Shown: positions 13,065-30,804 of the stretch, piece by piece
Layout of the letters: each line of letters opens with the position of its first letter
How positions within the stretch are numbered: the first letter of the stretch is position 1
DNA from: a phage
Reading direction: 5' to 3' (one strand)
Length of the DNA: 64,000 bases
Assembly: GCA_011915565.1 (NCBI GenBank)
Contig: GCA_011915565.1_3920.1
Program-made: the position numbers and the translations under genes
The notes under the pieces: model-generated
The model's input: the letters and a program-made list of their open reading frames with translations, nothing else
The model's database searches: none
Told to the model about the DNA's origin: nothing

Positions 13065-13550
13065 ATGAATTACATGGAGATTCGACCATTTGACACAGCT
13101 AATGGTGAAGGGGTTCGTGTAAGCCTCTTCGTAGCTGGTTGTAAGCATCACTGTGAAGGTTGCTTTAATAAGGAATCTTGGAAGTTTAATGCTGGTAAAG
13201 AGTTTACTTATGCAAACCTCTACGGTATCATTAAGTTAATGGATGATGAGGCCATCAGTGGGTTGTCAATACTCGGTGGAGAGCCTCTGGATGATAGAAA
13301 TATTCAAGAGGTTACCAACATATGCAAGCGTATTAAAACTGTTTATCCAGAAAAGTCTATATGGCTTTGGACAGGTTTTCAACTGCACGAAAAAATCCAC
13401 TTAGATGTGATGAAATATGTTGACGTGGTGATTGATGGTAAGTATGATTCATCTAAACCAACAGTTAAACCATATCGTGGTTCAGACAACCAAAACCTCT
13501 GGAGAAAAGAGTACGGATGGCAAGGTGATTGTCAGTGGAGAGCAGAGTGA
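13065..13550 (+). CDS. nrdG: anaerobic RNR activating protein (radical SAM)
   Basis: 161 aa; Cys cluster CKHHCEGCFNKESW typical of NrdG-type activases. Confidence 0.8.
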   Translation: MNYMEIRPFDTANGEGVRVSLFVAGCKHHCEGCFNKESWKFNAGKEFTYANLYGIIKLMDDEAISGLSILGGEPLDDRNIQEVTNICKRIKTVYPEKSIWLWTGFQLHEKIHLDVMKYVDVVIDGKYDSSKPTVKPYRGSDNQNLWRKEYGWQGDCQWRAE

Positions 13551-14246: not shown

Positions 14247-14273
14247 AAGGGGACTGTAAAGGTTCCCTTTTTA
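14247..14273 (+). terminator. intrinsic terminator
   Basis: GGGGAC/GTTCCC stem plus TTTTT. Confidence 0.55.
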
Positions 14274-14286
14274 TTTTGGAGGTAAA

Positions 14287-14802
14287 ATGTATCTGTCAAA
14301 CCTGAAACGTTCGGTTGCAATGTCAGTTCTAAGACTCAGCTTTGATGAGCGTCAAGAGTTTATAGACTCCCACAAATATGACCCTTCAAATTCTAATCAC
14401 ATGGTTCTTTGGAATCGTGATAACTTCCGTGAAAGAGCACTTGTCCGTTATTACCCACACTACACAATAGATAACCTGTATGAATGGTGTGTTGTGAAGA
14501 ACACCATTGCAACACTGAACAATCTTTGCAGGTATACGGGTAAGCAAACATTTACATTAGGTCATCACAAACCTGTTACAAAAGGTGGTGAACATCACTG
14601 TGCAAACTGGTTTATCCAAACTAAAGCTGATAACCAGAAGCAAGGAGATAGCCTCCTAAGTATTCCTAAGATGACCTATGAAGAGCAAGAGAGGTATATC
14701 AAAAATAATATGCCAGATGTGCTTGACAACAACTATACAGATTTGGCAATATCTCTCCTGTTGAAGTTCGAGACAGTTTATAGGGCAACTTATAATGGCT
14801 AA
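14287..14802 (+). CDS. HNH endonuclease (possible homing endonuclease)
   Basis: 171 aa; LGHHKPVTKGGEHHCANWFIQTKADNQKQ fits the HNH motif; GGAGGT RBS. Confidence 0.65.
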   Translation: MYLSNLKRSVAMSVLRLSFDERQEFIDSHKYDPSNSNHMVLWNRDNFRERALVRYYPHYTIDNLYEWCVVKNTIATLNNLCRYTGKQTFTLGHHKPVTKGGEHHCANWFIQTKADNQKQGDSLLSIPKMTYEEQERYIKNNMPDVLDNNYTDLAISLLLKFETVYRATYNG

Positions 14803-15073
14803 AGAAAAGTGGGAGATTTTACCATTAGTCAGTGAAGGAGGTAATGGTTGTGAAATGTACATGATACGTGGTCATGTTCCAGAGCCAATTGCACTTGAGA
14901 TGGTAAACAACTTTACAGATGGTTCTTACAAAGACTTAGGCGAACCAACTGTCAAGCAACAATGGGTTAAACCTGTACCAGACAGCACAGGTAACTGTAG
15001 TGTACTTTATCACGTTGTAGACCCTGCAAAATGCAAATCTGCAATGGCAGTAACAAACGTAACTTTTGATTGA
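14795..15073 (+). CDS. hypothetical protein
   Basis: 92 aa ORF. Confidence 0.45.
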   Translation: MAKEKWEILPLVSEGGNGCEMYMIRGHVPEPIALEMVNNFTDGSYKDLGEPTVKQQWVKPVPDSTGNCSVLYHVVDPAKCKSAMAVTNVTFD

Positions 15074-15084
15074 GAGAGAAAACT

Positions 15085-15966
15085 ATGAAAACATCTATCC
15101 GTGTTACAGTTCATTCACCAACTAAAGGGACTCATGAAGAAGAGTTTAACATCGTCCAATTCCCTTCTGGTGAGATTGGTGGACACTTTTCGCCAGAGTT
15201 TGTTGATTTTACTGCTTATGCAGCATCATCCATCAACAATGTGATTATGATTGTAAAAGGTTATGACAAGGACACATTGTTTGCTGTGGCACTTGCTAAA
15301 GAAGCAATTGATGATTTAATTCCTCATGATTATGCTTTAAAGACTGTCATCTTTTACTACTTACCAAATGCACGATATGACCGTCACATGTTTAAAGGTG
15401 ACGCAGCAGCTTTAAAGGTTTTTGCTAAACAGATTAATGCAATGGGATTTGGCGCAGTCTGTGCAGTTGACCCTCACAGCTATGTACCAGATAACCTGTT
15501 TAACTGCTTCCAGAGTATTCCTCAAAAGGAAATTGCAGTCCACTATGCAAATGACCCACTGATTGATTACTTAGTAGCCCCAGATGCAGGTGCTGCTAAG
15601 AAGATTGCAGAGACTGCTAAAGAGGTGGATAAACCATACATCACAATGTCTAAAGTACGCAACCTTAAGACTGGTGAAATTACTGGTATGCGAATCCTTG
15701 ATGATGTTGATTTGACAGATAAAACCGTCATGATTCTGGATGATATCTGTGATGGTGGTCGAACCTTCATAGAAGCAGCTAAACATCTTCGTGAAGCAGG
15801 TGCAAAACGTGTGGAACTCTATGTAACACACGGTATCTTCTCTAAAGATGTTGAAAACCTTCTTGACAATGGCATTGACCACATCTACACTACAAACTCT
15901 TTAGGGGAAGCTAAAGACCGTGGCTTAACACATTATGGTCAAGTTACTGTAGCAAACCTTGATTGA
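15085..15966 (+). CDS. ribose-phosphate pyrophosphokinase-like (PRPP synthetase family; candidate ADP-ribose pyrophosphokinase)
   Basis: PRTase-type nucleotide-binding loop VMILDDICDGGRTF; track start 15070 is TTG, ATG at 15085 chosen; immediately upstream of the NAMPT-like gene. Confidence 0.7.
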   Translation: MKTSIRVTVHSPTKGTHEEEFNIVQFPSGEIGGHFSPEFVDFTAYAASSINNVIMIVKGYDKDTLFAVALAKEAIDDLIPHDYALKTVIFYYLPNARYDRHMFKGDAAALKVFAKQINAMGFGAVCAVDPHSYVPDNLFNCFQSIPQKEIAVHYANDPLIDYLVAPDAGAAKKIAETAKEVDKPYITMSKVRNLKTGEITGMRILDDVDLTDKTVMILDDICDGGRTFIEAAKHLREAGAKRVELYVTHGIFSKDVENLLDNGIDHIYTTNSLGEAKDRGLTHYGQVTVANLD

Positions 15967-15975
15967 AACTTTATA

Positions 15976-15997
15976 GGGGCTTAAAAGCCCCATTTTG
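15976..15997 (+). terminator. intrinsic terminator-like hairpin
   Basis: GGGGC-TTAAAA-GCCCC followed by ATTTTG. Confidence 0.5.
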
Positions 15998-16011
15998 AGA
16001 GAGATTAAAAG

Positions 16012-17793
16012 ATGACTAAATCACTTTATGCAGTACCAGCAGGTTTAAACGCAGATGCTTACAAATCTGGTCATGTTTACCAGTACCCTAGTGCAACAGA
16101 GTACTTGATGTTCAACCTGACACCACGTAGTGACAAATGGTTTAACAGCCCCTTAGCAATTGATGGTGTAGTAGCTTTTGGTATTCAACGTTTCGTTAAA
16201 GATTACTTGATAGACCACTGGAACGCCACTTTCTTTGAACGTGATAAAAAAGAAGCCATTGATGAAATCTTAGAAGTTATGAATGGTGTTCTGGGTAAAG
16301 ATGCTATCGGTCGAGAGCATTGGGAAGCACTTCACGACTTAGGTTATCTACCAGTTGAAGTATACGCTGTAGAAGAAGGTACAGTTGTTCCTATGCGTGT
16401 ACCAATGATTGTCTTCCAGAACACTGTTTCAGGTTTCCATTGGGTAGCGGGATATCTGGAAGATGCTTTCTCTGCTGAGATTTGGAAGGCTTGTACCATT
16501 GCAACTATTGCATTGCATTATAAACGCATCTGTAAGAAGTGGGCTGACCTTACTTGCGACAATGACTTACATTTACCTTATCAGTGCCATGACTTTGCTA
16601 TGCGTGGTATGTCCGGCTTTACTGATGACGCATTTAACGCTGTAGGCCACTTAACCAGCTTTAAAGGGACTGATAGCTTCCCTGCTGTATATACAGCTAA
16701 ACGCATCTACGGACAGTCTTACCCAGTCTCTGATATTGGTGGTTCTGTACCAGCCACTGAACACTCTGTAATGTGTGCAAACATTGCTTGGGAAGGTGGT
16801 AATGAGTTGGTTGAAGAAGAAAGACGCTTTAAAGGTGAGTTGCAAACCTTCCGTCGCTTCTTAACAGAAACTTATCCAACTGGTATTGCAAGTGTTGTTT
16901 CAGACACTTATAACTTCTGGAGAACTGTGTCAGAAATCTTACCAGCACTCCGTAAAGAAATTATGGAACGTGATGGCAAACTGGTAATTCGTCCTGACTC
17001 TGGAGACCCTGTACACATTGTCACAGGTTATAAAGCAATCCACTTAGAGTGTGCTAAAAAGGCTTATTATGAGCACCTAAGCAATCTGGAAGCCAGTGAC
17101 ACAATGCTGAATGCTGTTCTGAACATGAAGCTTGAAAACATCAGCTATGGTATTGCTGGATGGCTACTGTCAGAAGGCTACGAAATGGTTGTTGACAGAG
17201 AAGACTTTGAAGTTGCTGATACAGTGATGTTGAAGAACGCTTATATGGTTGGTTCTGCAAACGTTGTAACACGCCCTGTAGCAGAGATTGATGGAGCTAT
17301 TAAGACCTTGTATAACATCTTTGGAGGAACTATTAACTCTAAAGGTTTTAAGGTACTGGATGAGCACATTGGCCTTATCTATGGCGACTCTATCACGTTG
17401 GAACGTGCAAACGAAATCCTGAAGCGTCTGTATGAAATGGGGTTTGCAAGCTCTAACGTGGTGTTTGGTGTAGGCTCTTACACTTACCAGTACATGACTC
17501 GTGACACCTTTGCATTTGCTGTCAAAGCAACTCTTGCAAGCATTGGTGGCAAAGAGATTATGCTTGCAAAAGACCCTAAAACAGATAGTGGTGTTAAGAA
17601 ATCTGCCTTTGGTGGTGTAGCACCTATGTGGGATGGTGAGAATTTGAAAGCTGTAGATGGCTATGGATTCCAGAGCTTTGCAGATGCACTTGAACATCCA
17701 GCTTGTGCTTTACGTTTAGTCTTTAGCGACTCTGAGCAGTACGGTTACACAACTCTTGGTGATATTCGAAATAATATTGACAATCAGCTTTAA
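16012..17793 (+). CDS. nicotinamide phosphoribosyltransferase-like enzyme (NAMPT/NadV family; candidate NAD+-forming transferase)
   Basis: 593 aa; N-terminal NADAYKSGHVYQYP resembles the conserved NAMPT start (DSYK..H..QYP). Confidence 0.75.
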   Translation: MTKSLYAVPAGLNADAYKSGHVYQYPSATEYLMFNLTPRSDKWFNSPLAIDGVVAFGIQRFVKDYLIDHWNATFFERDKKEAIDEILEVMNGVLGKDAIGREHWEALHDLGYLPVEVYAVEEGTVVPMRVPMIVFQNTVSGFHWVAGYLEDAFSAEIWKACTIATIALHYKRICKKWADLTCDNDLHLPYQCHDFAMRGMSGFTDDAFNAVGHLTSFKGTDSFPAVYTAKRIYGQSYPVSDIGGSVPATEHSVMCANIAWEGGNELVEEERRFKGELQTFRRFLTETYPTGIASVVSDTYNFWRTVSEILPALRKEIMERDGKLVIRPDSGDPVHIVTGYKAIHLECAKKAYYEHLSNLEASDTMLNAVLNMKLENISYGIAGWLLSEGYEMVVDREDFEVADTVMLKNAYMVGSANVVTRPVAEIDGAIKTLYNIFGGTINSKGFKVLDEHIGLIYGDSITLERANEILKRLYEMGFASSNVVFGVGSYTYQYMTRDTFAFAVKATLASIGGKEIMLAKDPKTDSGVKKSAFGGVAPMWDGENLKAVDGYGFQSFADALEHPACALRLVFSDSEQYGYTTLGDIRNNIDNQL

Positions 17794-17808
17794 AAGTATA
17801 TGATAAGA

Positions 17809-17829
17809 GGCTCCTACGGGAGCCTTTTT
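17809..17829 (+). terminator. intrinsic terminator
   Basis: GGCTCC-TACG-GGAGCC plus TTTTT. Confidence 0.75.
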
Positions 17830-17846
17830 AATTTCTGGAGAAGATT

Positions 17847-18368: not shown

Positions 18369-20735
18369 ATGCGCATGGTAAATGACCACGCAGAAGTGAT
18401 TAAGAGTTCAACTTCTTTAGAGACGTCTCAAGCACAGATTACAATGACACCTGAGATGTTCAGCCTTTTGAGTTCTGGTGTGTATACCTTTAAAGAAAGG
18501 GCAGTGATTCGTGAACTGTCATGTAACGCAGTAGATGCTCAGAAAGAAGCTGGAAAAGAGAACATTCCATTCCATGTGCATTTACCTACTCGTTTTGAGC
18601 CTTACTTCGAAGTTCGTGATTTTGGAACTGGATTGACTCATGATAAAGTTATGAGTTTGTACCTAAACTATGGAGCTTCTACGAAGAATGACTCTAATGA
18701 CTACATTGGTGCAATGGGTATCGGCTCAAAGTCACCATTTGCAATTGCTCAGTCATTCACAGTATCTAGCTATGTTGACGGTGTTGTTAATAAGTACTCT
18801 GTTTATCTTGAGAATGGTATCCCTCAAGTAACTAAGCTGACAACTAACCCAACAAAAGAACCTAATGGTTTAGCTGTACGTGTGGCAGTTGCTGACCACC
18901 GTATCTCAAAGTTCTTTGAAGAAGCTGGGAATGTGTACTCATACTTCACTGTAAAACCAGAAAGTAATATTGAGTACGACGATATATTAGCAGATATGAA
19001 CGTCATTGCCCGTGAAGAAGGTGTTTATGATGCCATGATTCATAAGCAAAGCTGGCGTTCTGGCGCTAACAGAACAGAGTTTAATGTGGTGATGGGTAAC
19101 ATTGCCTACCCTGTTAACATGGAAGCATTACTTGGAGATGATTTCTTCAAAGTATTGCCAGAATTTTTCCGTAGGAGCGTAGACCTTGTAAACATCTACA
19201 TGCCTATTGGTTCAGTTGCTATTGCAGCTTCTCGTGAAGCATTGCAGATGAATGACACGACAAAAAATGTTATCATTGAGGCTACTAAAAAGATAACTGA
19301 AGCCATTACAAAGGATGTTATCAAGAAAGTTAATAGCCAACCTACACTCATGGATGCTGCACAGGCTTATGCTGAGTTACGTTTGAACTCACGAGAGATG
19401 TTTAATGCTGTGTGTCCAAAGCTAGAATGGGGAGGCGTTAAGCTTGATTCTCTGGAAGAAGAATTACTAAACATTCGTCGTGGGATTATCTACGCAGAAG
19501 ACGGCTCAGTCATTTATGAACGTGACGGCAAAGGTAATATTAAGGTTGATAGGAACGGGAACAATATCCCTAAAGTAGACTATCTTTATGACCCAGTTGC
19601 TTATGTCAAGTTCAACTCTTTAGAGAGTAAGATTCGTGCAACAGCACTTTCCTACACTCAAGAGGCAAGCATGTTCAATATCTTTGGTGCAATGCGTAAA
19701 AGCCAAATTGAACAGTTTTTGTTCGTGATTAATGACCGTCGCAATAAAAACGGTACTGAGAAGACTGTAGGACGCAATCAAATTTTGCGTGGTGCATGTC
19801 GAGACTATGCCAGTGAATCAAATCTGTTTCACAGATACAATGGCATTGTGTTTGTATTCTCGACTGAAAAAGAGTTAGATGATTTAATCAATCTACACAA
19901 ACTTGATAAAAGCTTGTTAAAGATTGTGAAGATGTCTGATAAGGAACACCACTATCAGCGCAAAGAAGCTGTAAGGGGTGTTGTAAAACTATGGAAAGCT
20001 GTTCCAGCAGAATCTGTAGCTTCATACAAAGAGGTGTCAGAAGACTTAGACACAATTGAAGAACCTCAGCTTTACATTAAGGCAGTTGGTGACACAGTTG
20101 ATGGTAGATGTTTTTGCTCATCTCCAGAAGATGTAGCTAAGTCAGTTGCTAATGTTACAGGTAAGACAGTCTATGTTTTCCGAAAAGCAAATTGGAAAAA
20201 GATACCAGAAGACTGGATTGAAGTAGATGAGCAACTCTTGAACGATAGCTTAACTGATGTTCACTGGATTAACCATAACAGATATATGACACGTATCTAT
20301 ATGAATGGTGTCCTTGACCTTACAAGCAGTTGGATTATTGCCAGAAACTTTACGTTTAATAACAGGAAGATTTCTCGCGGGTATTGTTATTCAAGGGATA
20401 CTATTAAGACAATCTTCTTAGAAGGGAATGAAGATGCTGTTGAGGCAATGTTCGGTAAGATTCAGTATGTGGCTGCACCGTTTGCATACACTTACACTAT
20501 CAGTGTTCTTCAGGATTTGAAGACATGCCTTGATAATGACACAAAACTGTACAAAAAGATTAAGAAAGCAGGTGACCGCATGGTTATCAAGCTGACAAAC
20601 TATCTTTCAAAAAGAAAACAAGAAAACTTCTTGCTTTCACACTTAGATTGGAATAAAGTATCACCTATCGAAGTGAGTAAGTTTTTAGGCTTTGATGTGA
20701 AATGTGTTCCAGAAGGTACAACAATTTACGATTAA
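18369..20735 (+). CDS. rIIA: rIIA protein (GHKL-type ATPase fold)
   Basis: Blocks align by eye with T4 rIIA: VYTFKERAVIRELSCNAVDA, FEVRDFGTGL, DYIGAMGIGSKSPF, MPIGSVAIAASREALQ. Confidence 0.85.
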   Translation: MRMVNDHAEVIKSSTSLETSQAQITMTPEMFSLLSSGVYTFKERAVIRELSCNAVDAQKEAGKENIPFHVHLPTRFEPYFEVRDFGTGLTHDKVMSLYLNYGASTKNDSNDYIGAMGIGSKSPFAIAQSFTVSSYVDGVVNKYSVYLENGIPQVTKLTTNPTKEPNGLAVRVAVADHRISKFFEEAGNVYSYFTVKPESNIEYDDILADMNVIAREEGVYDAMIHKQSWRSGANRTEFNVVMGNIAYPVNMEALLGDDFFKVLPEFFRRSVDLVNIYMPIGSVAIAASREALQMNDTTKNVIIEATKKITEAITKDVIKKVNSQPTLMDAAQAYAELRLNSREMFNAVCPKLEWGGVKLDSLEEELLNIRRGIIYAEDGSVIYERDGKGNIKVDRNGNNIPKVDYLYDPVAYVKFNSLESKIRATALSYTQEASMFNIFGAMRKSQIEQFLFVINDRRNKNGTEKTVGRNQILRGACRDYASESNLFHRYNGIVFVFSTEKELDDLINLHKLDKSLLKIVKMSDKEHHYQRKEAVRGVVKLWKAVPAESVASYKEVSEDLDTIEEPQLYIKAVGDTVDGRCFCSSPEDVAKSVANVTGKTVYVFRKANWKKIPEDWIEVDEQLLNDSLTDVHWINHNRYMTRIYMNGVLDLTSSWIIARNFTFNNRKISRGYCYSRDTIKTIFLEGNEDAVEAMFGKIQYVAAPFAYTYTISVLQDLKTCLDNDTKLYKKIKKAGDRMVIKLTNYLSKRKQENFLLSHLDWNKVSPIEVSKFLGFDVKCVPEGTTIYD

Positions 20736-20814: not shown

Positions 20815-21924
20815 ATGACTACTAAAACTAAAGCACAGATTGACGCAGAAATTTACAAACTGGTTAAAGAAGGTAAGCTGACCAAAACAGCTATTGCACA
20901 GAAATTTAACACTTCAACCCGTTCAGTTGGTCGTGCTGTAGAGCGTCATGAAGCAACCCTAAAAGGGAATAAAAAGGCAACTTCTACACCAGCTACGAAG
21001 ACTTTGAAACAAGTTGCTAAGACTTTTAAAAAGAAAGCTGGCAAACCAGTTGAAAAGGTCGTTAAAGAGACTGTACAGAAAGCTCCAGTAAATAAACTGC
21101 ACGAAGCTATGCAGAAAGATGACAAAATTGAGTACATGATTACTGGTGACTCTGTAATTATGACTTATGGTTCAGAATCTGAAATTGTTGAGTCTACTCA
21201 TCCAAACTATCAAGAGATTGTAGTTCATGTTGTGAAAGGTGAGTTCAAGAAAGCATTTGAACTGATGAACATCCGTAAGTCTATCGAAAACTTCACTCAG
21301 GGTGCTATTACAATCAAAGGTGACAAGCTATTCTACGGTGCTGTTGAGATGCGTTCTACTCTGGTTGACCGTATTCTCCACATGATGAAGACTGGTGATA
21401 AAGGTTTTGAACGACTTGTAATGTTCTTCGAAAAACTGATGGAAAACCCATCTAAAGATTCTGTAGAACAACTTTGGGGATTTGTATCTCACCTTGATGT
21501 TGAAATTGATGAAGAAGGCTACATCATTGGTTGGAAGAAAGTCTCTACTCGTGAAGGCAAGCTGGTTGACTCTCACACCTACAAAGTGCCTAATGATTTG
21601 GGTAACATTGTAGAAATGCCACGTTGGATGGTTGATAATAACCGTAACGTAACTTGCTCTCAAGGTCTTCATGTTGGTGCTTGGGATTATGTTCGTTGCT
21701 TCTCAGGTGATACAATCCTGAAGGTTCGCGTACATCCACGAGATGTTGTATCTGTTCCAACTGATTACAACGATATGAAGATGCGTTCCTCTCGTTATGA
21801 AGTTGCAGCAATCGTTGATAATCAACGTAAAGTGCTGGAAGCATGGGACGGTAAGACTGAAGCTTTGCATGTCATCGTTGGCACTGCTGGTGAACTCATC
21901 TCTCAACGTAAACGTGAAATCTAA
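20815..21924 (+). CDS. rIIB: rIIB protein
   Basis: C-terminal half aligns by eye with T4 rIIB (FEKLMENPSKDSVEQLW, CSQGLHVG, VRVHPRDVVSVPTDYNDMKMRSSRYEV). Confidence 0.85.
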   Translation: MTTKTKAQIDAEIYKLVKEGKLTKTAIAQKFNTSTRSVGRAVERHEATLKGNKKATSTPATKTLKQVAKTFKKKAGKPVEKVVKETVQKAPVNKLHEAMQKDDKIEYMITGDSVIMTYGSESEIVESTHPNYQEIVVHVVKGEFKKAFELMNIRKSIENFTQGAITIKGDKLFYGAVEMRSTLVDRILHMMKTGDKGFERLVMFFEKLMENPSKDSVEQLWGFVSHLDVEIDEEGYIIGWKKVSTREGKLVDSHTYKVPNDLGNIVEMPRWMVDNNRNVTCSQGLHVGAWDYVRCFSGDTILKVRVHPRDVVSVPTDYNDMKMRSSRYEVAAIVDNQRKVLEAWDGKTEALHVIVGTAGELISQRKREI

Positions 21925-22024: not shown

Positions 22025-22573
22025 ATGAAGAAATTGATTCTAGGTTTGTGCTTAATGTTTACAGCACACTTATCTTATGCAGTTGACTGCCCAGAGCTAT
22101 CAATTAGCCAAAAAGTGAACATGTTAAAAGCTTACCAGTATGGTGAGAATAACATGGGTAAAGGTTGGGGTATCACTCTAGCAGCTATAGCCTTACAAGA
22201 GTCAGAGTTAGGTCTGAAGGTAGAAAATAAAAAGACCCATGACTATGGTATCTTCCAGAATCACTTGAAGACTGTTGTAAAGCGTAACAAAATTAGTCCT
22301 AATGTTGCTAAAAAGAAACTCTTAAAAGATTTTGACTATGCTGCGAAGGAAACGCACAAAGAACTTGAGTTTTGGACAAAGGTGCATGGTCAGCCAAAGT
22401 CAAAGAAGACTTTACAAAAAGTTTTAGCATCATATAATGCTGGGTATTCGTACAGAATCCCTAAAGCTAAGAAGTATTCTCAAGATGTCTATAACAACAT
22501 GAAAGTTATTGCTCAATGTGAATTTGCAACAAACATTTCTAAGGTAAACCATGAAAAAATTAAAAAAGTCTGA
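22025..22573 (+). CDS. secreted protein with signal peptide (possible lytic-transglycosylase-like)
   Basis: MKKLILGLCLMFTAHLSYA signal peptide; ALQESELG...GIFQ loosely SLT-like; AGGAGA RBS. Confidence 0.55.
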   Translation: MKKLILGLCLMFTAHLSYAVDCPELSISQKVNMLKAYQYGENNMGKGWGITLAAIALQESELGLKVENKKTHDYGIFQNHLKTVVKRNKISPNVAKKKLLKDFDYAAKETHKELEFWTKVHGQPKSKKTLQKVLASYNAGYSYRIPKAKKYSQDVYNNMKVIAQCEFATNISKVNHEKIKKV

Positions 22574-23246
22574 TGAAGTCCTGTGCCACGCTTATGACTT
22601 ACATCCTCATGAGTTAGGTCTTGATTCCTGTGTATGGACTCCAGAACAGTGCAGAGATTTTGAAGACACTGCAAGAGAGGTTGTATGTTCACTTGAAGAG
22701 TTCCACACATCAGAACCCATTGTGAACGTTGTGGACAAAGAGACTGGACAAACTATAGGTGTAAGGCGTGATAGTTTAGTGATAGTCAATAAAGACCTTG
22801 TAGAAAAAGGTAACCTCATCTTAGCAGATATTGATGGTGTTCTTACAAATTTTAATCACGAAGATTGCTCAACGGAATTGACTGATGGGTCATTCTCACA
22901 GTACACTAATCTTCTTGATTCTGTAAGAGCAAAACCAACATATGTTTTCAACATTATTGATGCAATTGCAAATCATGCAGCAGTTGGACTCTTGACAGCA
23001 AGAGGTGAATCTCAGAGAATACCTACTGAGATGTTTTTAAGGCACAATATAGAGCATGATTACTTGCTTTTTATGCGTGGTTTTGGAACTAACTCTATAA
23101 GTGCAGAAAGTTTGAAAGTGAGGATGATTCAGTCTTGCATTCTTCCTTACTTTAATATAGTATGCTTTATAGAAGATACAGAGAAGAATGTTCAGAAGGT
23201 AAACAGAATCCTTCCACACATTAAAACCATGTTAGTTAAACATTGA
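22551..23246 (+). CDS. HAD-superfamily hydrolase-like protein
   Basis: LILADIDGVLT matches HAD motif I (DxDG); tentative. Confidence 0.5.
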   Translation: MKKLKKSDEVLCHAYDLHPHELGLDSCVWTPEQCRDFEDTAREVVCSLEEFHTSEPIVNVVDKETGQTIGVRRDSLVIVNKDLVEKGNLILADIDGVLTNFNHEDCSTELTDGSFSQYTNLLDSVRAKPTYVFNIIDAIANHAAVGLLTARGESQRIPTEMFLRHNIEHDYLLFMRGFGTNSISAESLKVRMIQSCILPYFNIVCFIEDTEKNVQKVNRILPHIKTMLVKH

Positions 23247-25380: not shown

Positions 25381-25573
25381 CTTCTGCAAAGACTGTTCTA
25401 TCGAAATGTTCGGACGTGATACAGGTGACTTAAAAGGTCTTATCACTGAAGATGACTTTAAAGCTGGTTATGCAATGCCAGTAATCTGTGAAGGCTGTGG
25501 GTGTATCTGGGTAGACCACGAAGGACAACGTGTAAAACCTTCAGAAGACAAAGAATCTTGGGAGAGATGTTAA
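25373..25573 (+). CDS. hypothetical Cys-rich small protein
   Basis: Internal ATG of ORF 25295..25573 with AGAGG RBS; CKDC...CEGCGC motifs. Confidence 0.4.
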   Translation: MADFCKDCSIEMFGRDTGDLKGLITEDDFKAGYAMPVICEGCGCIWVDHEGQRVKPSEDKESWERC

Positions 25574-26359
25574 ATGGGTATTGTAAAAATAATTAATGGT
25601 GATATCTTTGCCGCATTTGATAAAGGTAAGTTTGACATCATCGGTCACGGTTGCAACTGTATGAACTTAATGGGTGCAGGTATCGCTGACAAGATTTCTA
25701 AACTTTACCCAAAAGCGTATGAGACCGATACAGAAGTTTATCTGTATGCAGGTGGTATAGGTCACAAACCCTGTGAAAATTTACTAGGTAATTTCTCTGT
25801 AGCACGTTTAAAACAAGGTCGTATAGCTAATCTTTACACTCAGCTTAAGACTGGTAAAGATGCCCGATACAGTGCTTTAGAGTCATCTTTGAAACAGCTT
25901 AACAGATACTGTGAAGTTAATCAGTTGAAGAAAGTTGGGTTACCTATGATTGGTGCAGGTATCGGTGGACTTGACCCTCAAGCCGTTACCGTTATCATTA
26001 ATCAGGTGATGAAGAGTGTAGATGTGTATCTGTATGTCTACGAAGGAGAGATGTACCACAAGTTACGCTCAGGTTGGAATAACTACTGCGAACCAGAATA
26101 CTTTGCAGGTGTAGTAACGTTCACAGACAATGCAGTTACCCTCTTCAGACGAAGAAAAGGTAAGATACATCAAAGTAACCCTCCGGTTGAAAAGATGTCT
26201 CTAAGTAACGCTCTAGTTACCCACCTGTCGAAGAGCAATCACAGAATTGCAGTAACATTTGGCAGTGATGCAGACACATATATCTATGCAAGGACTGATG
26301 AAGATATCGAGGAGATTTTCTCATCACAAGAAGTTACCTTCTTAGACGCAAAGAACTAA
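25574..26359 (+). CDS. hypothetical protein, tentatively macro-domain-like (ADP-ribose binding/processing)
   Basis: 261 aa; N-terminal FDIIGHGCNCMNLMGAGIADKI loosely resembles the macro-domain Gly-rich loop region; low certainty. Confidence 0.55.
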   Translation: MGIVKIINGDIFAAFDKGKFDIIGHGCNCMNLMGAGIADKISKLYPKAYETDTEVYLYAGGIGHKPCENLLGNFSVARLKQGRIANLYTQLKTGKDARYSALESSLKQLNRYCEVNQLKKVGLPMIGAGIGGLDPQAVTVIINQVMKSVDVYLYVYEGEMYHKLRSGWNNYCEPEYFAGVVTFTDNAVTLFRRRKGKIHQSNPPVEKMSLSNALVTHLSKSNHRIAVTFGSDADTYIYARTDEDIEEIFSSQEVTFLDAKN

Positions 26360-26787: not shown

Positions 26788-26816
26788 TTGACTCTTTGAG
26801 TATGGTTATCTAATAT
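26788..26816 (+). promoter_or_regulatory. sigma70-like promoter (TTGACT-17-TAATAT)
   Basis: Directly upstream of the first class-A hairpin leader. Confidence 0.55.
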
Positions 26817-26820
26817 TTGC

Positions 26821-26879
26821 ATCAACGGGGAGGGAATGACCTTCCCCACTAAGTAAAGTCCTAAACTGGAGATTCTAAA
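26821..26879 (+). promoter_or_regulatory. class-A leader element, copy 1
   Basis: ATCAACGGGGAGGGAATGACCTTCCCCACTAAgTAAAGTCCTAAACTGGAGATTCtAAA then ATG; GGGGAGG/CCTTCCCC hairpin plus RBS. Confidence 0.6.
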
Positions 26880-27260
26880 ATGGCATACCGTGCACCTAAA
26901 TTCATCAACAAAGACAACTTCCGCAACGCACTGGAGAAGTCACTTGATGAAAAATTTAACGGCAAATTGATTGTTGTTCACGCATTCAATTTTAAGTATG
27001 ATATTAACGGGAATAAAATCAACCATTACACGGCAACCATGTTAGATGGTACGCTATCAAGTGAAAAAGCCGTACTGAATGCACTTGCAGGACGTGGTAA
27101 AAACCTGATAAGCTGCAATAAGAGACGTTATCAAGGTGGCGCATATGGTTATGATGATGCTGTTTACCATCTTGAAAATATGGGCTATTCAGTGGAGAAA
27201 GCTGGAGCGTCTCAAATAATTGGTAGTGATGGTTATGTGACAATCTTCAAAATTAAATAA
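26880..27260 (+). CDS. early-array small protein 1
   Basis: 126 aa ORF after class-A leader. Confidence 0.6.
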   Translation: MAYRAPKFINKDNFRNALEKSLDEKFNGKLIVVHAFNFKYDINGNKINHYTATMLDGTLSSEKAVLNALAGRGKNLISCNKRRYQGGAYGYDDAVYHLENMGYSVEKAGASQIIGSDGYVTIFKIK

Positions 27261-27346
27261 AAGTACTTTACAAGGGGCTTATAGTTCGATAAAGTAAGCC
27301 CCAGATAAAGAGCTTTATCACTCAATCCTAAATTGGAGATTCAAAA
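27258..27346 (+). promoter_or_regulatory. class-B leader element, copy 1
   Basis: AAGTACTTTACA, GGGGCTTA-loop-TAAGCCCC hairpin, AGATAAAGAGCTTTATCACTCAATCCTAAATTGGAGATTCAAAA then ATG; embedded TTTACA-17-TAAAGT promoter-like spacing. Confidence 0.6.
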
Positions 27347-27604
27347 ATGGCTATTATCAAAAACGTTGTAGTTCCTGCAAAAACTCGTGATGACGCTCGC
27401 ATCATGGCGAAAAAGTTAGGCGGGAAAGTGGTTGACAACGGAAAACAATCTGCTGTAAGATGGAGCGTGAAGGCTGATAAGCAACTAACCTTAAAACGCA
27501 GTTCAAACAATCTTTTTAAAGGTGTAAAATCACTCGGTAAAGTGAACGTGTTTACCAAAAAAGGCTATAAAATGCACTTATCATTAACTGGCAATTTAAT
27601 CTGA
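27347..27604 (+). CDS. early-array small basic protein 2
   Basis: 85 aa, Lys-rich. Confidence 0.55.
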   Translation: MAIIKNVVVPAKTRDDARIMAKKLGGKVVDNGKQSAVRWSVKADKQLTLKRSSNNLFKGVKSLGKVNVFTKKGYKMHLSLTGNLI

Positions 27605-27605
27605 T

Positions 27606-27694
27606 AAAGTACTTTACAGGGGGCTTAAAAGCTGATATCTTAAGCCCCAGATAAAGAGCTTTACCACTCAATCCTTAAACTAGGAGATTCAAAA
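27606..27694 (+). promoter_or_regulatory. class-B leader element, copy 2
   Basis: Same architecture as copy 1 (TTTACA, GGGGCTTAA hairpin, AGATAAAGAGCTTTACCACTCAATCC, GGAGATTCAAAA-ATG). Confidence 0.6.
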
Positions 27695-28207
27695 ATGAAA
27701 ACTGTAGAAGCTACCTTTGAAGTTGTAAAAGAAAAATTTTCCATCATTTACGAAGCTGTTAATTGCTTTGAAGCAAGCCATAACCTTGATAATTGGGAGT
27801 TTACAGATGACCATCAAGGCGGCGTGACTATTAAAAACCCCAACTGTCAGCGTAATGATTTTAAATATGCAATCCCTTTACATTACAGCCTTAAACAGCT
27901 TTCAAGTGACTATGCAAAACAAGGCCGGGAAAATCCATCAAAAGAGGCTTACATAAGCTTACAGAAAGAACTAGAAAGAGATTTAGAGGCTTCAGAATAC
28001 AACCTTGCCGCGAAAGTTGTCGATGCAAATGGTCAAACAATTTTAGATAGTTTTTATATTGGTTACGCTTTCGATTGGTGCTATAGTGACGGCGATGATT
28101 TAGAGGATAGACTAAAAGAAGAGGTGAGCAATTCAGACGCAGAATCTGAAGTATTAGAACGCTTGGAAGCATTAAAAGATTCAGTGATGAATATCTTTAA
28201 GAACTAA
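27695..28207 (+). CDS. early-array acidic protein 3
   Basis: 170 aa, Asp/Glu-rich C-terminal half. Confidence 0.6.
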   Translation: MKTVEATFEVVKEKFSIIYEAVNCFEASHNLDNWEFTDDHQGGVTIKNPNCQRNDFKYAIPLHYSLKQLSSDYAKQGRENPSKEAYISLQKELERDLEASEYNLAAKVVDANGQTILDSFYIGYAFDWCYSDGDDLEDRLKEEVSNSDAESEVLERLEALKDSVMNIFKN

Positions 28208-28295
28208 ATAGATTTCTTTACACGGGGCTATCAAGCTGATAAGATAGCCCCAGATAAAGAGATTTATCAACTATCCTAAACTGGAGATTCAAAAA
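28208..28295 (+). promoter_or_regulatory. class-B leader element, copy 3 (diverged)
   Basis: TTTACAC-GGGGCTATC hairpin-GATAGCCCC-AGATAAAGAGATTTATCAACTATCC...GGAGATTCAAAAA-ATG. Confidence 0.55.
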
Positions 28296-28592
28296 ATGAA
28301 ATTATCAAATAAAGTCCGTGAAAATCTAAGCAAGTTACTCAACAAAATTGATTTTATCGAGACATCAAGGAATAGTCATGATGTTATGGAATGGTTACAC
28401 GGAAAAATCAAAGGCCGTCGTGTAGTGATTTGCTTATGGAATAGTTGCAGGGAATATAAAAAACCTGTATTACAAGTCAATATCTATGATGATACTTTTA
28501 AAAGCCCTGTAAAGTCTAAAAGTGATTTATTAGAATCCTATGAGATAACTGTAAATGGCAAAGTATCAAGTAAAGAGGAAACACCATGTTAA
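28296..28592 (+). CDS. early-array small protein 4
   Basis: 98 aa. Confidence 0.55.
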   Translation: MKLSNKVRENLSKLLNKIDFIETSRNSHDVMEWLHGKIKGRRVVICLWNSCREYKKPVLQVNIYDDTFKSPVKSKSDLLESYEITVNGKVSSKEETPC

Positions 28593-28918
28593 TGACTGGT
28601 ATCACTGCAATCATTGCCATTTTCGCGCTATATAAGGCATATAAAGCCTATAATCTAGCAAATAAGGCAATCACACAGCAGGTTAGCAATAGCCTTGTAG
28701 AAAGCTTTCTAGGGCGTCTCAGTGATGAGCAAATAAAGCGGTTAGAAATGAGCTTCAGATTCAAAGCGAAAACCTATCAGATAAGTGACATCTTCAAGGA
28801 TGATTTCCAGTTAGTCGATGATTATAATTCTCTGATAAATGCTTTAAATATCAGTGACTTAAAAGACTACTACGCTGTAATTGTTCAAGAGTTGAGCAAA
28901 CGAAAACAAAACTGTTGA
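28586..28918 (+). CDS. early-array small membrane protein 5
   Basis: 110 aa; N-terminal TM helix; AAGAGGAAA RBS; no leader element of its own. Confidence 0.55.
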   Translation: MLMTGITAIIAIFALYKAYKAYNLANKAITQQVSNSLVESFLGRLSDEQIKRLEMSFRFKAKTYQISDIFKDDFQLVDDYNSLINALNISDLKDYYAVIVQELSKRKQNC

Positions 28919-29007
28919 CACTGATTTTTAGATAGATTAAATTACACATCAACGGGGAGGGAACAACCTTCCCACTAAATAAAGTCCTTAAACTAGGAGA
29001 TTCTAAA
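28914..29007 (+). promoter_or_regulatory. class-A element copy 2: promoter TTGACA-17-TAAATT plus hairpin leader
   Basis: TTGACACTGATTTTTAGATAGATTAAATTACACATCAACGGGGAGGGAACAACCTTCCCACTAAATAAAGTCCTTAAACTAGGAGATTCTAAA then ATG; near-identical to 29779-29870. Confidence 0.65.
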
Positions 29008-29280
29008 ATGTATACTACTAACAATGGCCTCACTTTGAACGTCACACTACGTCACTATGTAGATGGTGTCATGCACTTTGAAGATTTACAAGCTGAACAA
29101 CATATCTTAGATTGGCAAGTCGCAGGACTCCAAAAAACTGCTACGGGATACGGTAAAAAGATTCCAACTAGTTGGAAAGTTCACTATGAAGGACGTTTGC
29201 GCAGAATTTATCAAGATGTGCAAAGCAATAGCGCATCGAGTTACATTATAGTAAAAGGTGAAAAACTGCATTTAGTATAA
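29008..29280 (+). CDS. early-array small protein 6
   Basis: 90 aa. Confidence 0.55.
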   Translation: MYTTNNGLTLNVTLRHYVDGVMHFEDLQAEQHILDWQVAGLQKTATGYGKKIPTSWKVHYEGRLRRIYQDVQSNSASSYIIVKGEKLHLV

Positions 29281-29365
29281 AGTACTTTACATGGGGTTTA
29301 AAAGTTGGTATCTTAAGCCCCAGATAAAGAGCTTTACCCCTAAATCCTAAATTGGAGATTCAAAA
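29279..29365 (+). promoter_or_regulatory. class-B leader element, copy 4
   Basis: AGTACTTTACATGGGGTTTAAAAGTTGGTATCTTAAGCCCCAGATAAAGAGCTTTACCCCTAAATCC...GGAGATTCAAAA-ATG. Confidence 0.6.
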
Positions 29366-29770
29366 ATGGCTATTAATAATCGTGAGTTATCAATCTTAAA
29401 AGCACGTTTAACCGTTAATCGAATCAATGTTATCACGTCATCAGCACCAGACGAGACATTACACAACATTATCGGGAAGATTCAAGGTGTTATCTTAGAC
29501 GTTGAGAATGTAAAAAACTCATTAGCAGACGTTGCAGCAGGTGTTACACTAGACGGCGCACAATATGAAATGATTGACATGTTAGGCAAATCAAAGGTTA
29601 TGAATAAAGAGTTAGACTTAAAAATGTTTCGATTTGCCGTGAAAGTATGGCTATCTGTCGAGTATGATGCTAATTTTGCAATTGCTGATTTCTTTGCCAC
29701 TTGGTTGCAACGTAACTTAACAAATCATGATTTTCGTGATATCTGTGATGCAATTTACGCAGAACTTTAA
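29366..29770 (+). CDS. early-array small protein 7
   Basis: 134 aa. Confidence 0.6.
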   Translation: MAINNRELSILKARLTVNRINVITSSAPDETLHNIIGKIQGVILDVENVKNSLADVAAGVTLDGAQYEMIDMLGKSKVMNKELDLKMFRFAVKVWLSVEYDANFAIADFFATWLQRNLTNHDFRDICDAIYAEL

Positions 29771-29778
29771 AAATTTTA

Positions 29779-29870
29779 TTGACACTGATTTTTAGATAGA
29801 CTAAATTACACATCAACGGGGAGGGAACAACCTTCCCACTAAATAAAGTCCTTAAACTAGGAGATTCAAA
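29779..29870 (+). promoter_or_regulatory. class-A element copy 3: promoter TTGACA-17-TAAATT plus hairpin leader
   Basis: About 90-nt near-exact duplicate of 28914-29007. Confidence 0.65.
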
Positions 29871-30413
29871 ATGAAATGCTTTCACGGTACTACTCAAGAA
29901 AACTTTATCAACCTGATTAATAACGGTGATAAACCATCAGGTGTATGGAATTGTTCGGATATGGACGGCAATTTTTACGTGTACCCAGAAAATAAACTCT
30001 ATGGTGATGATGAGGAAGAGATAGCATCGGAAGGTATCCAGCAAGCTCTAGGAAATGCCACTATCACGGCAGCTTTTCAGATGAAAACTCAAAATATTGT
30101 TATCTTAGAACTTGACATTCCAGAGGATGAGCTAAATGATGATTATTCTTGTGATAACATGTCAAATATAGCAAGCTTTACAGAGTACTTTGATGTAAAT
30201 TGGATTAAAAAGGTCTATACAACAGAGTTCAACGCTATGTATTCACCTTTTTGTCTCCCTTCACTGGATAATCCAAATTTGAATTATCTTGATGAAACAT
30301 TGGAGCTACTTGCTAAAAGTATCCAACAATCCGACAGTATTCAGGTTTTTTGTGACATCATGGATACACTGACAGAAAACATTGTAGAGAGTGATTTAAA
30401 GGTCTTTTTCTAA
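29871..30413 (+). CDS. early-array acidic protein 8
   Basis: 180 aa, strongly Asp/Glu-rich. Confidence 0.6.
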   Translation: MKCFHGTTQENFINLINNGDKPSGVWNCSDMDGNFYVYPENKLYGDDEEEIASEGIQQALGNATITAAFQMKTQNIVILELDIPEDELNDDYSCDNMSNIASFTEYFDVNWIKKVYTTEFNAMYSPFCLPSLDNPNLNYLDETLELLAKSIQQSDSIQVFCDIMDTLTENIVESDLKVFF

Positions 30414-30479
30414 AAACCTATACATTCACCTTATAAACACTGATTAACCCCTTACAGGGGCTTTTAGAGGGCTTAAATC

Positions 30480-30713
30480 ATGCTTACAACCATTTATCTC
30501 ATCCTTTCTATCTGTAACGGTCATTCATGTGACTTTAAAGGGCTTGAAGAGTTTACAGGAAGTAAAGAAAATGCTATTCAGGTTTGCCAGATAGCAAGAC
30601 AAGACTATCCCGCCAGTGACGACATTCAATGCTACTTTAAGACAGAAGATGAAGACGGCATCTATTTTGACAGCGTTGACGGTCAATATGAAATTATCAT
30701 TGAAAAAGACTAG
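30480..30713 (+). CDS. early-array small protein 9
   Basis: 77 aa; hydrophobic N-terminus; leader differs from classes A and B. Confidence 0.5.
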   Translation: MLTTIYLILSICNGHSCDFKGLEEFTGSKENAIQVCQIARQDYPASDDIQCYFKTEDEDGIYFDSVDGQYEIIIEKD

Positions 30714-30804
30714 ACAAGCCTGATAAAAGTCTGTAAATTACACATCAACGGGGAGGGAATGACCTTCCCCACTAAATAAAGTCCTTAAACTAGGAGATTC
30801 AAAA
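30711..30804 (+). promoter_or_regulatory. class-A element copy 4 (TAGACA-17-TAAATT plus hairpin leader)
   Basis: ...TAAATTACACATCAACGGGGAGGGAATGACCTTCCCCACTAAATAAAGTCCTTAAACTAGGAGATTCAAAA-ATG. Confidence 0.6.

Follow-up and report, generated by a model that had tools for sequence, protein, structure and literature searches.

A probable NARP1 operon for NAD+ reconstitution in a Felixounavirus genome and its likeness to bacterial nrtR-prs-nadV loci

Introduction

What do two adjacent genes, one resembling phosphoribosyl pyrophosphate (PRPP) synthetase and the other resembling nicotinamide phosphoribosyltransferase (Nampt), contribute to a phage? This question is raised by positions 15085–17793 of a 64,000-nucleotide (nt) stretch of phage DNA from GenBank assembly GCA_011915565.1, contig GCA_011915565.1_3920.1, which is referred to as the window throughout. 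A preliminary description made from the sequence of the window had read the pair as a candidate for NAD+ reconstitution pathway 1 (NARP1), an anti-defence pathway formed by an ADP-ribose diphosphokinase (Adps) and a nicotinamide ADP-ribose transferase (Namat). In the proposed mechanism, NAD+-depleting defence systems (SIR2-HerA/Nezha, type I Thoeris, DSR1/2, SEFIR and others) would split NAD+ into ADP-ribose (ADPR) and nicotinamide. Adps would then move the beta,gamma-pyrophosphate of ATP to the 1'' hydroxyl on ADPR's terminal ribose, giving ADPR pyrophosphate (ADPR-PP) and AMP, and Namat would swap the pyrophosphate of ADPR-PP for nicotinamide, giving NAD+ directly. Such a route would proceed without a nicotinamide mononucleotide (NMN) intermediate and without an adenylyltransferase.

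Here the pair was examined by profile, sequence, structure-model and synteny comparisons. We put the probability that it constitutes the NARP1 operon of a Felixounavirus at about 0.93. Because the window comes from the genus in which NARP1 was discovered, the earlier reading is right but not novel: the pair is a published anti-defence pathway already known from the same genus.

Assignment of the window and published precedent for NARP1

A megablast search with the region returned 258 phage records, nearly all from Felixounavirus, with 99.1% identity to Escherichia phage SP22 and 98.4% identity to wV8, and the window was assigned to this genus. Two same-strand open reading frames (ORFs), adps and namat, fill exactly the span in which the adjacent genes had been reported. 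Of the motifs quoted for them, TVMILDDICDGGRTF was recovered from the protein of adps and DAYKSGHVYQYP from that of namat. The first mechanical start of adps is an upstream TTG (15070); the ATG at 15085, which gives the 293 amino acid (aa) protein, was taken as the start because it is the same as the annotated starts in Bas63, wV8 and SP22. The assignment of the two proteins to the Prs and NAMPT families was borne out by matches far beyond chance. Adps matched Pfam Pribosyltran (PF00156, 1.2e-11), Pribosyl_synth (PF14572, 4.7e-10) and TIGR01251 (1.5e-35, 122.6 bits), and Namat matched Pfam NAPRTase (5.3e-35) together with NAMPT_N, and NCBIfam PRK09198 (1.6e-140).

NARP1 was discovered through deletion of genes 79–80 in the BASEL phage Bas63 (JohannRWettstein, MZ501086.1), which is itself a Felixounavirus (Osterman et al., bioRxiv 10.1101/2024.02.11.579819). 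In that work the Bas63 deletion mutant showed a ~20-fold plating loss on SIR2-HerA cells and NAD+ recovery was abolished, ADPR-PP occurred in infected cells only when the Bas63 operon was present, and counter-defence was kept in a host without pncC and nadR, so that the NMN route is excluded for Bas63. The same preprint reported the enzymology of the SPbetaL1 proteins, with Adps converting ADPR and ATP to ADPR-PP and Namat converting ADPR-PP and nicotinamide to NAD+, and in its supplementary tables the proteins of wV8 and SP22 are entered under Adps and under Namat, the latter with the tag “Adps-associated”. The two NARP1 reactions and their structural basis have been established for the homologues from SPbetaL1 and ICP1.

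The window pair is syntenic with the Bas63 genes. Namat shared 98% aa identity with Bas63_0080, including a lineage-specific insertion described below, and Adps shared 78% aa identity with Bas63_0079. This level of identity, together with the conservation of every signature residue tested, leads us to infer that the window proteins themselves act as NARP1 enzymes, and the NARP1 reading is further supported by the published Adps and Namat tables.

Sequence features of Adps

The window Adps was aligned with the Adps proteins of ICP1, SPbetaL1, a Pseudomonas phage and Bas63 and with Prs from Escherichia coli. It shared 31–37% aa identity with the proven Adps of ICP1, SPbetaL1 and the Pseudomonas phage as against 24% with E. 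coli Prs, and it scored at most 104 bits against every Prs equivalog model, for which the cut-offs are 296–536. Taken with the published table, these identities and model scores argue for placing the protein in the phage Adps clade and not among housekeeping Prs.

Closer examination of individual residues pointed the same way. Lys190, in the hairpin KVRNLKTGEI, aligns with K185 of ICP1 and K162 of SPbetaL1, and the substitutions K185A and K162A abolish Adps activity in those homologues. The conserved residues F26, R97, H131, D167, D219, D220 and D223 match ADPR/ATP contacts described for ICP1 Adps, in the structures of which F18, R87, H121, D161, D212 and D213 contact ADPR (PMC13586617). The pyrophosphate (PP) loop of the window protein (DDICDGGRTF) resembles that of ICP1 (DDICDGAASF) rather than that of E. 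coli Prs (DDMIDTGGTL). Adps has 293 aa compared with 315 aa in E. coli Prs, and the alignment stops short of the E. coli C-terminal segment, suggesting that the C-terminal alpha11-alpha12 regulatory/filament module of PRPP synthetases has been lost. The window Adps is predicted to form ADPR-PP and AMP from ADPR and ATP and not to use ribose-5-phosphate.

These features also bear on the possibility that the Prs-like enzyme mainly raises PRPP for phage nucleotide synthesis, with the NAMPT-like gene as a passenger. The location of the pair between nrdA/B/D/G and rIIA/B, in the early nucleotide-metabolism region, would fit such a role; however, both the catalytic hairpin and the PP loop are of the Adps type and the phenotype seen with Bas63 is confined to defence that depletes NAD+, so that a nucleotide-supply function appears extremely unlikely.

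Relative to Bas63, the window adps gene is a mosaic. Sliding identity over a MAFFT alignment showed a DNA identity of 58–79% over ~15100–15600 between flanks that were mostly 89–99% identical, and at the protein level residues 1–180 (window 15085–15620) were 57–73% identical and residues 181–293 were 92–98% identical. In many phage records the match to the query starts only at nt 276. Together with the drop in identity, this indicates that two N-terminal Adps alleles circulate in Felixounavirus, one of the wV8/SP22 type and one of the FelixO1/Bas63 type. The window carries the former, and a comparison of printed sequences showed only 2 residues that differ between the SP22 and window Adps. All mapped functional and contact residues are identical between the two alleles.

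Sequence and structural features of Namat

Among sequences with a structure in the PDB, the best match to the window Namat was SPbetaL1 Namat (9W5W/9W5X, 2e-127), with weaker matches to HdNadV (1e-103), Xcc Nampt (5e-52) and human NAMPT (1e-41). An AlphaFold2 (AF2) model of the protein had a predicted local distance difference test (pLDDT) score of 94, and the top folds retrieved with it were the chains of 9W5X and 9W5W, with target-normalised template modelling (TM) scores of 0.94–0.95. According to the fold-search description, PDB entry 9KE8 is the NadV of “Hd” with NMN; a literature search found no paper on this structure. Core residues were mapped by hand from the 9W5W/9W5X alignment onto the published residue names, which showed that the catalytic core is kept (D15, Y17, F195, R198, D221, A248, H251, R327 and D329), all of these positions being invariant in alignment A2.

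The selectivity clamp was compared across several of these enzymes. The clamp helix motif of the window Namat (GSYTYQYMTRD) corresponds to GSFTYQYNTRD in SPbetaL1 Namat, GAQTYQRNTRD in HdNadV and GGALLQKVDRD in Xcc Nampt; the adenine clamp is present in the window Namat and missing from the NMN-forming controls HdNadV and Xcc Nampt. The Phi3 position of the window clamp is Met, Asn or Val being commoner. The selectivity-clamp loop (SCL; SDKWFNSPL) is 4 residues longer than that of SPbetaL1. According to the Namat structure paper, the third SCL residue is R, K or Y, and with K or Y in this place it is the fourth residue that stacks on the adenine. The S40-D41-K42-W43 segment of the window is identical to that of Bas63, the Lys-type case in the same paper. 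From these comparisons the window Namat is expected to prefer ADPR-PP to PRPP and to make NAD+ directly.

The clamp also bears on classical pyridine salvage, in which a true PRPP synthetase and a true NMN-forming Nampt would deliver NMN for conversion to NAD+ through host NadR, NadD or PncC routes. Nearly every GenBank record annotates the pair in this way and the Pfam and NCBIfam names agree; E. coli encodes NadD and NadR, and SPbetaL1 Namat does make NMN from PRPP when ADPR-PP is absent. When offered both substrates, however, SPbetaL1 Namat produced only NAD+, and the window Namat has the adenine clamp that NMN-forming enzymes are missing. The scores of the Prs-like partner against the equivalog models, which are far below the cut-offs, also speak against a true PRPP synthetase, as do the success of Bas63 against SIR2-HerA in a host without pncC and nadR and the accumulation of ADPR-PP only with the operon. 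Classical salvage is already largely refuted for the Bas63 orthologue, and for the window pair we consider it very unlikely.

Felixounavirus Namat is ~100 aa longer than SPbetaL1 Namat, and most of the excess is a lineage-specific insertion of ~85 aa at residues ~340–427, seen as a gap against 9W5W/9W5X. In the AF2 model the insertion forms an alpha/beta sub-domain of three helices and four short strands (pLDDT 93–97), which is without counterpart in SPbetaL1 Namat or any Nampt enzyme compared. Its only occurrences were within namat, in 254 phage records of Ounavirinae type, and it diverges faster than the remainder of the gene, with 43–53% aa identity in the Sf14 and phiSUSP1 groups. The insertion is not discussed in the Namat structure paper, where the word “insertion” occurs 0 times. 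Origin from an intein or homing element was considered and rejected, as the segment has no Cys/Ser...His-Asn splice motifs, is confidently folded as part of the protein and is conserved in-frame in 254 records.

Search for an NMN adenylyltransferase and assessment of the NARP1 reading

As a further route to NAD+, the NAMPT-family protein could act with a phage NMN adenylyltransferase (NMNAT) encoded elsewhere in the genome, in an arrangement of the NARP2 type; phages such as KVP40 do pair Nampt with Nmnat. The preliminary description had recognised no NMNAT near the pair and had named an NMNAT gene elsewhere in the genome as evidence that would favour NARP2 or salvage. When E. coli NadD and NadR were searched with phmmer against every six-frame segment of the window and of SP22 (the complete genome, 87 kb), the best E value was 1.2, and the (H/T)xGH motif was not found in six frames of either. 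No NMNAT annotation is present in the SP22 record or in what was examined of the records for Bas63 and O157 typing phage 8, and the founding paper tags the wV8 and SP22 proteins “Adps-associated”, not “Nmnat-associated”. The lack of an NMNAT in the window and the SP22 genome disfavours both classical salvage and NARP2, and we regard the latter as having a negligible probability.

Several points weigh against NARP1. The in vitro reactions come from SPbetaL1, ICP1, DyoEdafos and Paenibacillus proteins, and none from Felixounavirus. The adenine-stacking Phe92 of ICP1 Adps aligns with Met102 of the window (Phe103 being adjacent), as it does in Bas63, and the N-terminal Adps allele of the window differs from that of Bas63, which is the allele tested genetically. 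Namat homologues also keep NMN-forming activity with PRPP in vitro, so that some classical salvage flux is conceivable. The comparison with characterized NARP1 and housekeeping enzymes that had been proposed for both proteins nevertheless came out on the side of NARP1, each of them carrying the Adps or Namat signatures.

The practical value of this assignment lies in the annotation of Felixounavirus records. Most of those in GenBank name the products “ribose-phosphate pyrophosphokinase” and nicotinamide or nicotinate phosphoribosyltransferase, and none of the records examined uses Adps or Namat. In the SP22 record the Adps gene carries the tag “nadR” and rIIA the name “DNA ligase”, and in one record the names hpt and pncB are used. 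The literature examined covers neither the mosaic N-terminus of Adps nor the Namat insertion specific to Ounavirinae, both of them features of the type example, and the same is true of the macro-domain gene and of the HNH gene of FelixO1 described below.

Organization of the locus

The positions of all features are collected in Table 1. The two phage genes are separated by a 45-nt spacer on the same strand, and the ribosome-binding-like motif TTGAGAGAGA precedes both starts. Within the spacer lies a GC-rich hairpin; the 56-nt stretch 15960–16015 that includes it has a predicted fold of -12.9 kcal/mol (z = -2.9), and the hairpin may act as an attenuator or RNA stabiliser. Downstream of namat, the 47-nt stretch 17794–17840 with the terminator-like hairpin folds at -16.6 kcal/mol (z = -3.3), with 0/200 shuffles as stable.

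Table 1. Features of the NARP1 locus and of related genes in the window.
Feature	Position	Strand	Basis or remark
NrdG	13065..13550		Upstream of adps
Upstream terminator-like site	14247-14269		Sequence
Small ORF, 171 aa, phrog_3500	14287..14802	+	Weak HNH-like match, 2.7e-6
Small ORF, 92 aa, phrog_4726	14795..15073	+	
adps, putative ADP-ribose diphosphokinase, PRPP-synthetase-like, 293 aa	15085..15966	+	ORF, homology
Intercistronic GC hairpin, GGGGCT-TAAA-AGCCCC then ATTTTG	15976..15991	+	Within the adps-namat spacer
namat, putative nicotinamide ADP-ribose transferase, NAMPT-like, 593 aa	16012..17793	+	ORF, homology
Namat selectivity-clamp loop (SCL), SDKWFNSPL, residues 40-48	16129..16155	+	
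Namat lineage-specific insertion, residues ~340-427, ~85 aa	17029..17292	+	Gap vs 9W5W/9W5X
Namat selectivity-clamp helix motif, GSYTYQYMTRD, residues 488-498	17473..17505	+	
Intrinsic-terminator-like hairpin after namat	17805..17828	+	10-bp stem then T run
rIIA	18369..20735		phrog_612, 3.8e-189; downstream of namat
rIIB	20815..21924		phrog_609, 2.9e-89; downstream of namat
Macro-domain protein, 261 aa, candidate unlinked Adpp-like ADPR-1''-phosphate phosphatase	25574..26359	+	Pfam Macro, 1e-07

Two small ORFs precede adps, overlapping each other by 8 nt, and the second stops 12 nt before the adps ATG. Both belong to PHROG families of unknown function, the 171-aa ORF containing the HNH-like stretch GHHKPVTKGGEH...N...N, and syntenic ORFs of equal length are annotated in Bas63, FelixO1 and SP22. 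The terminator-like sites on either side suggest a four-gene transcription unit made up of the two small ORFs, adps and namat. The small ORFs are possibly co-transcribed with NARP1 and are counted here as its neighbours. The preliminary description had placed the pair beside rIIA and rIIB, and both genes indeed lie just downstream; they were identified by PHROGs, rIIA being unmatched and rIIB only sub-threshold in Pfam. On the other side, nrd genes other than nrdG were placed upstream of adps by synteny with relatives.

The genes around the pair vary within the genus. Salmonella phage FelixO1 has an HNH homing-endonuclease gene between adps and namat (2116–2607 of the FelixO1 stretch compared), and several other Felixounaviruses have an HNH gene within the matched region, which is ~470 bp longer than in the window. 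The window is without an interposed HNH gene and has the 45-nt hairpin spacer at the corresponding place. Directly after namat, Bas63 has an extra 345-nt gene, bas63_0081 (Bas63 25509–25853, corresponding to window position 17844), a counterpart of which is absent from the window, wV8 and SP22 types.

A distal macro-domain gene

The only macro gene found in the window lies 7.8 kb downstream of namat, 15–16 annotated genes away in syntenic relatives, and the immediate neighbours of adps and namat are without a macro domain. Its product matched phrog_335 (“phosphatase”, 1.9e-112) and consists of a Poa1p/TARG1-like macro domain (residues 1–165) and a beta-rich C-terminal domain. Over the whole macro domain it shared 27% aa identity (2e-13) with Adpp of Vibrio phage Gary, a proven enzyme, and 34% (1e-17) with the NARP1-associated macro protein of Pseudomonas phage PN09, and the HxCNC...GxGIA and GxG[IL]xGxD loops are common to all three proteins.

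A fold search was tried as a means of discriminating a Poa1p-like phosphatase from a TARG1/DarG-like hydrolase; with the AF2 model (pLDDT 90) the matches to TARG1 (2e-10), Poa1p (3e-9) and DarG (3.5e-9) were about equal and did not separate the two. Members of the macro family are present in large phage genomes of the T-even type as well, beside tk and vs-type genes and not beside NARP1. A spacing of ~9–10 kb between the macro gene and NARP1 is kept in two distant relatives, but this synteny may reflect overall genome colinearity and was not counted as a functional link.

At 7.8 kb from namat, the gene falls outside the “within two genes” criterion by which the aRES preprint defines NARP1-AP. 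In view of the fold matches and of the occurrence of the family in T-even-type genomes, it is possible, though rather doubtful, that the macro gene acts as an unlinked Adpp and that Felixounaviruses are (dispersed) NARP1-AP phages. A role as an ADP-ribosyl hydrolase or as an accessory of RNA repair is just as possible for the protein, the latter because a polynucleotide kinase gene lies at 22551–23246. If the protein were an ADPR-1''-phosphate phosphatase, surveys with a two-gene radius would underestimate the number of phages able to overcome RES-type NAD+ phosphorolysis as well. The RyDEP and NARP3 papers, checked for accessory genes, make no mention of Felixounaviruses or Bas63.

Downstream of the macro gene, at ~26800–30800, intergenic repeats of ~60–110 bp separate small early genes; they are 87–98% identical to several places in SP22 and are probably repeated promoter/terminator modules.

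Bacterial relatives and NrtR

The closest cellular relatives of the window Namat (46–48% aa identity) are encoded on the chromosomes of Klebsiella, Erwinia, Kosakonia, Citrobacter and similar genera of the Enterobacterales, the order of the phage's hosts. In the core loci (e.g. that of Klebsiella michiganensis) a gene for NrtR is divergent from an Adps-like gene, which is followed by a Namat-like gene; the Adps-like product shared 48% aa identity with the window Adps over 190 residues.

Bacterial loci were scanned with one genome per species, and the 80 best by similarity to the window Namat were analyzed. The Namat clamp signature was present in most of them (72/80), as was an Adps-type Prs paralogue within 5 kb (73/80); an NrtR homologue was found in 56/80 loci and an NMNAT-like ORF in 1/80. 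Since the 80 loci were picked by likeness to the phage Namat, these counts are uninformative on the frequency of true Nampt operons. For every bacterial Prs paralogue the score against Adps exceeded that against E. coli Prs; most have the K-x-R-x3-TG-x-[IL] hairpin and nearly all have a DD[IL]CDGG-type PP loop. NUDIX and NrtR_WHD domains were detected in 7/7 sampled NrtR homologues.

Operons of the nrtR-prs-nadV type have been described by Rodionov et al. (2008, PMC2330246), who reported ADPR as the best NrtR anti-repressor and explicitly left the dedicated Prs paralogue unexplained. The founding NARP1 paper (bioRxiv 10.1101/2024.02.11.579819) merely alludes to ADPR-regulated transcription, and a 2026 paper showed activity for one Paenibacillus pair, with NrtR unmentioned; a literature search found no paper containing both “NrtR” and “NARP1”. 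We lean slightly towards the view that the pair was not invented by phages but copies an old bacterial module without its regulator, and that the NrtR-controlled prs-nadV operons carry out NARP1-type recycling of ADPR to NAD+. As ADPR is the anti-repressor of NrtR, the bacterial module would be induced by its own substrate. If this holds, it would explain the co-regulation of a dedicated Prs paralogue with NadV, a question open since 2008, and ADPR-to-NAD+ recycling would be a housekeeping pathway that phages borrowed.

Comparison with known systems

The nearest system is that of Bas63 (bas63_0079/0080), with which the window shares the genus, the position between the nrdG-side small ORFs and rIIA/rIIB, gene lengths of 882 and 1782 nt and the 45-nt spacer. 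It differs in the first 180 Adps residues, where its wV8/SP22-type allele is only 57–73% identical, and in having no bas63_0081 after namat.

With SPbetaL1 (Adps WIT26982.1; Namat 9W5W/9W5X) the window shares the gene order, the Namat catalytic core, the clamp motif and the catalytic Lys of Adps, whereas aa identity is only 31% for Adps and 37–38% for Namat in the fold alignment. SPbetaL1 Namat, at ~490 aa, is without both the ~85-aa insertion and a 15-aa insertion of the window protein, its SCL uses Arg40 where the window has Lys-Trp, and the PP loop of SPbetaL1 Adps is DDLSSFGGTF compared with DDICDGGRTF. ICP1 Adps (PMC13586617) is also 31% identical to the window protein; the two have in common the ADPR-contact residues, a PP loop of the form DDICDG..F and a hairpin of the form K-x-R-x-x-K-T-G-x-I, and ICP1 Adps differs at PP-loop residues A218, A219 and S220, which correspond to G225, R226 and T227 in the window.

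The NARP1-AP system of Vibrio phage Gary (Adps-Adpp-Namat; Osterman et al., bioRxiv 10.64898/2026.01.28.702374) resembles the window genome in that the latter also has a macro protein of the same Poa1p-like family as Adpp, although the macro gene of the window is outside the operon and its product has an extra C-terminal domain of ~95 aa. The NARP2 Nampt of KVP40, encoded with Nmnat, and the NMN-forming enzymes 9KE8 (H. ducreyi), 7YQO (Xanthomonas) and human NAMPT share the fold and catalytic core with the window Namat but have no aromatics at clamp positions 3 and 7 and no Adps partner, and NARP2 requires an NMNAT, none of which was found in the window or the SP22 genome. Finally, the bacterial nrtR-prs-nadV operons (PMC2330246) contain pairs of 46–48% identity in which the Namat clamp motif recurs and the hairpin and PP loop are of the Adps type; they are chromosomal, linked to NrtR and without the Ounavirinae insertion, whereas the phage copy is without the regulator.

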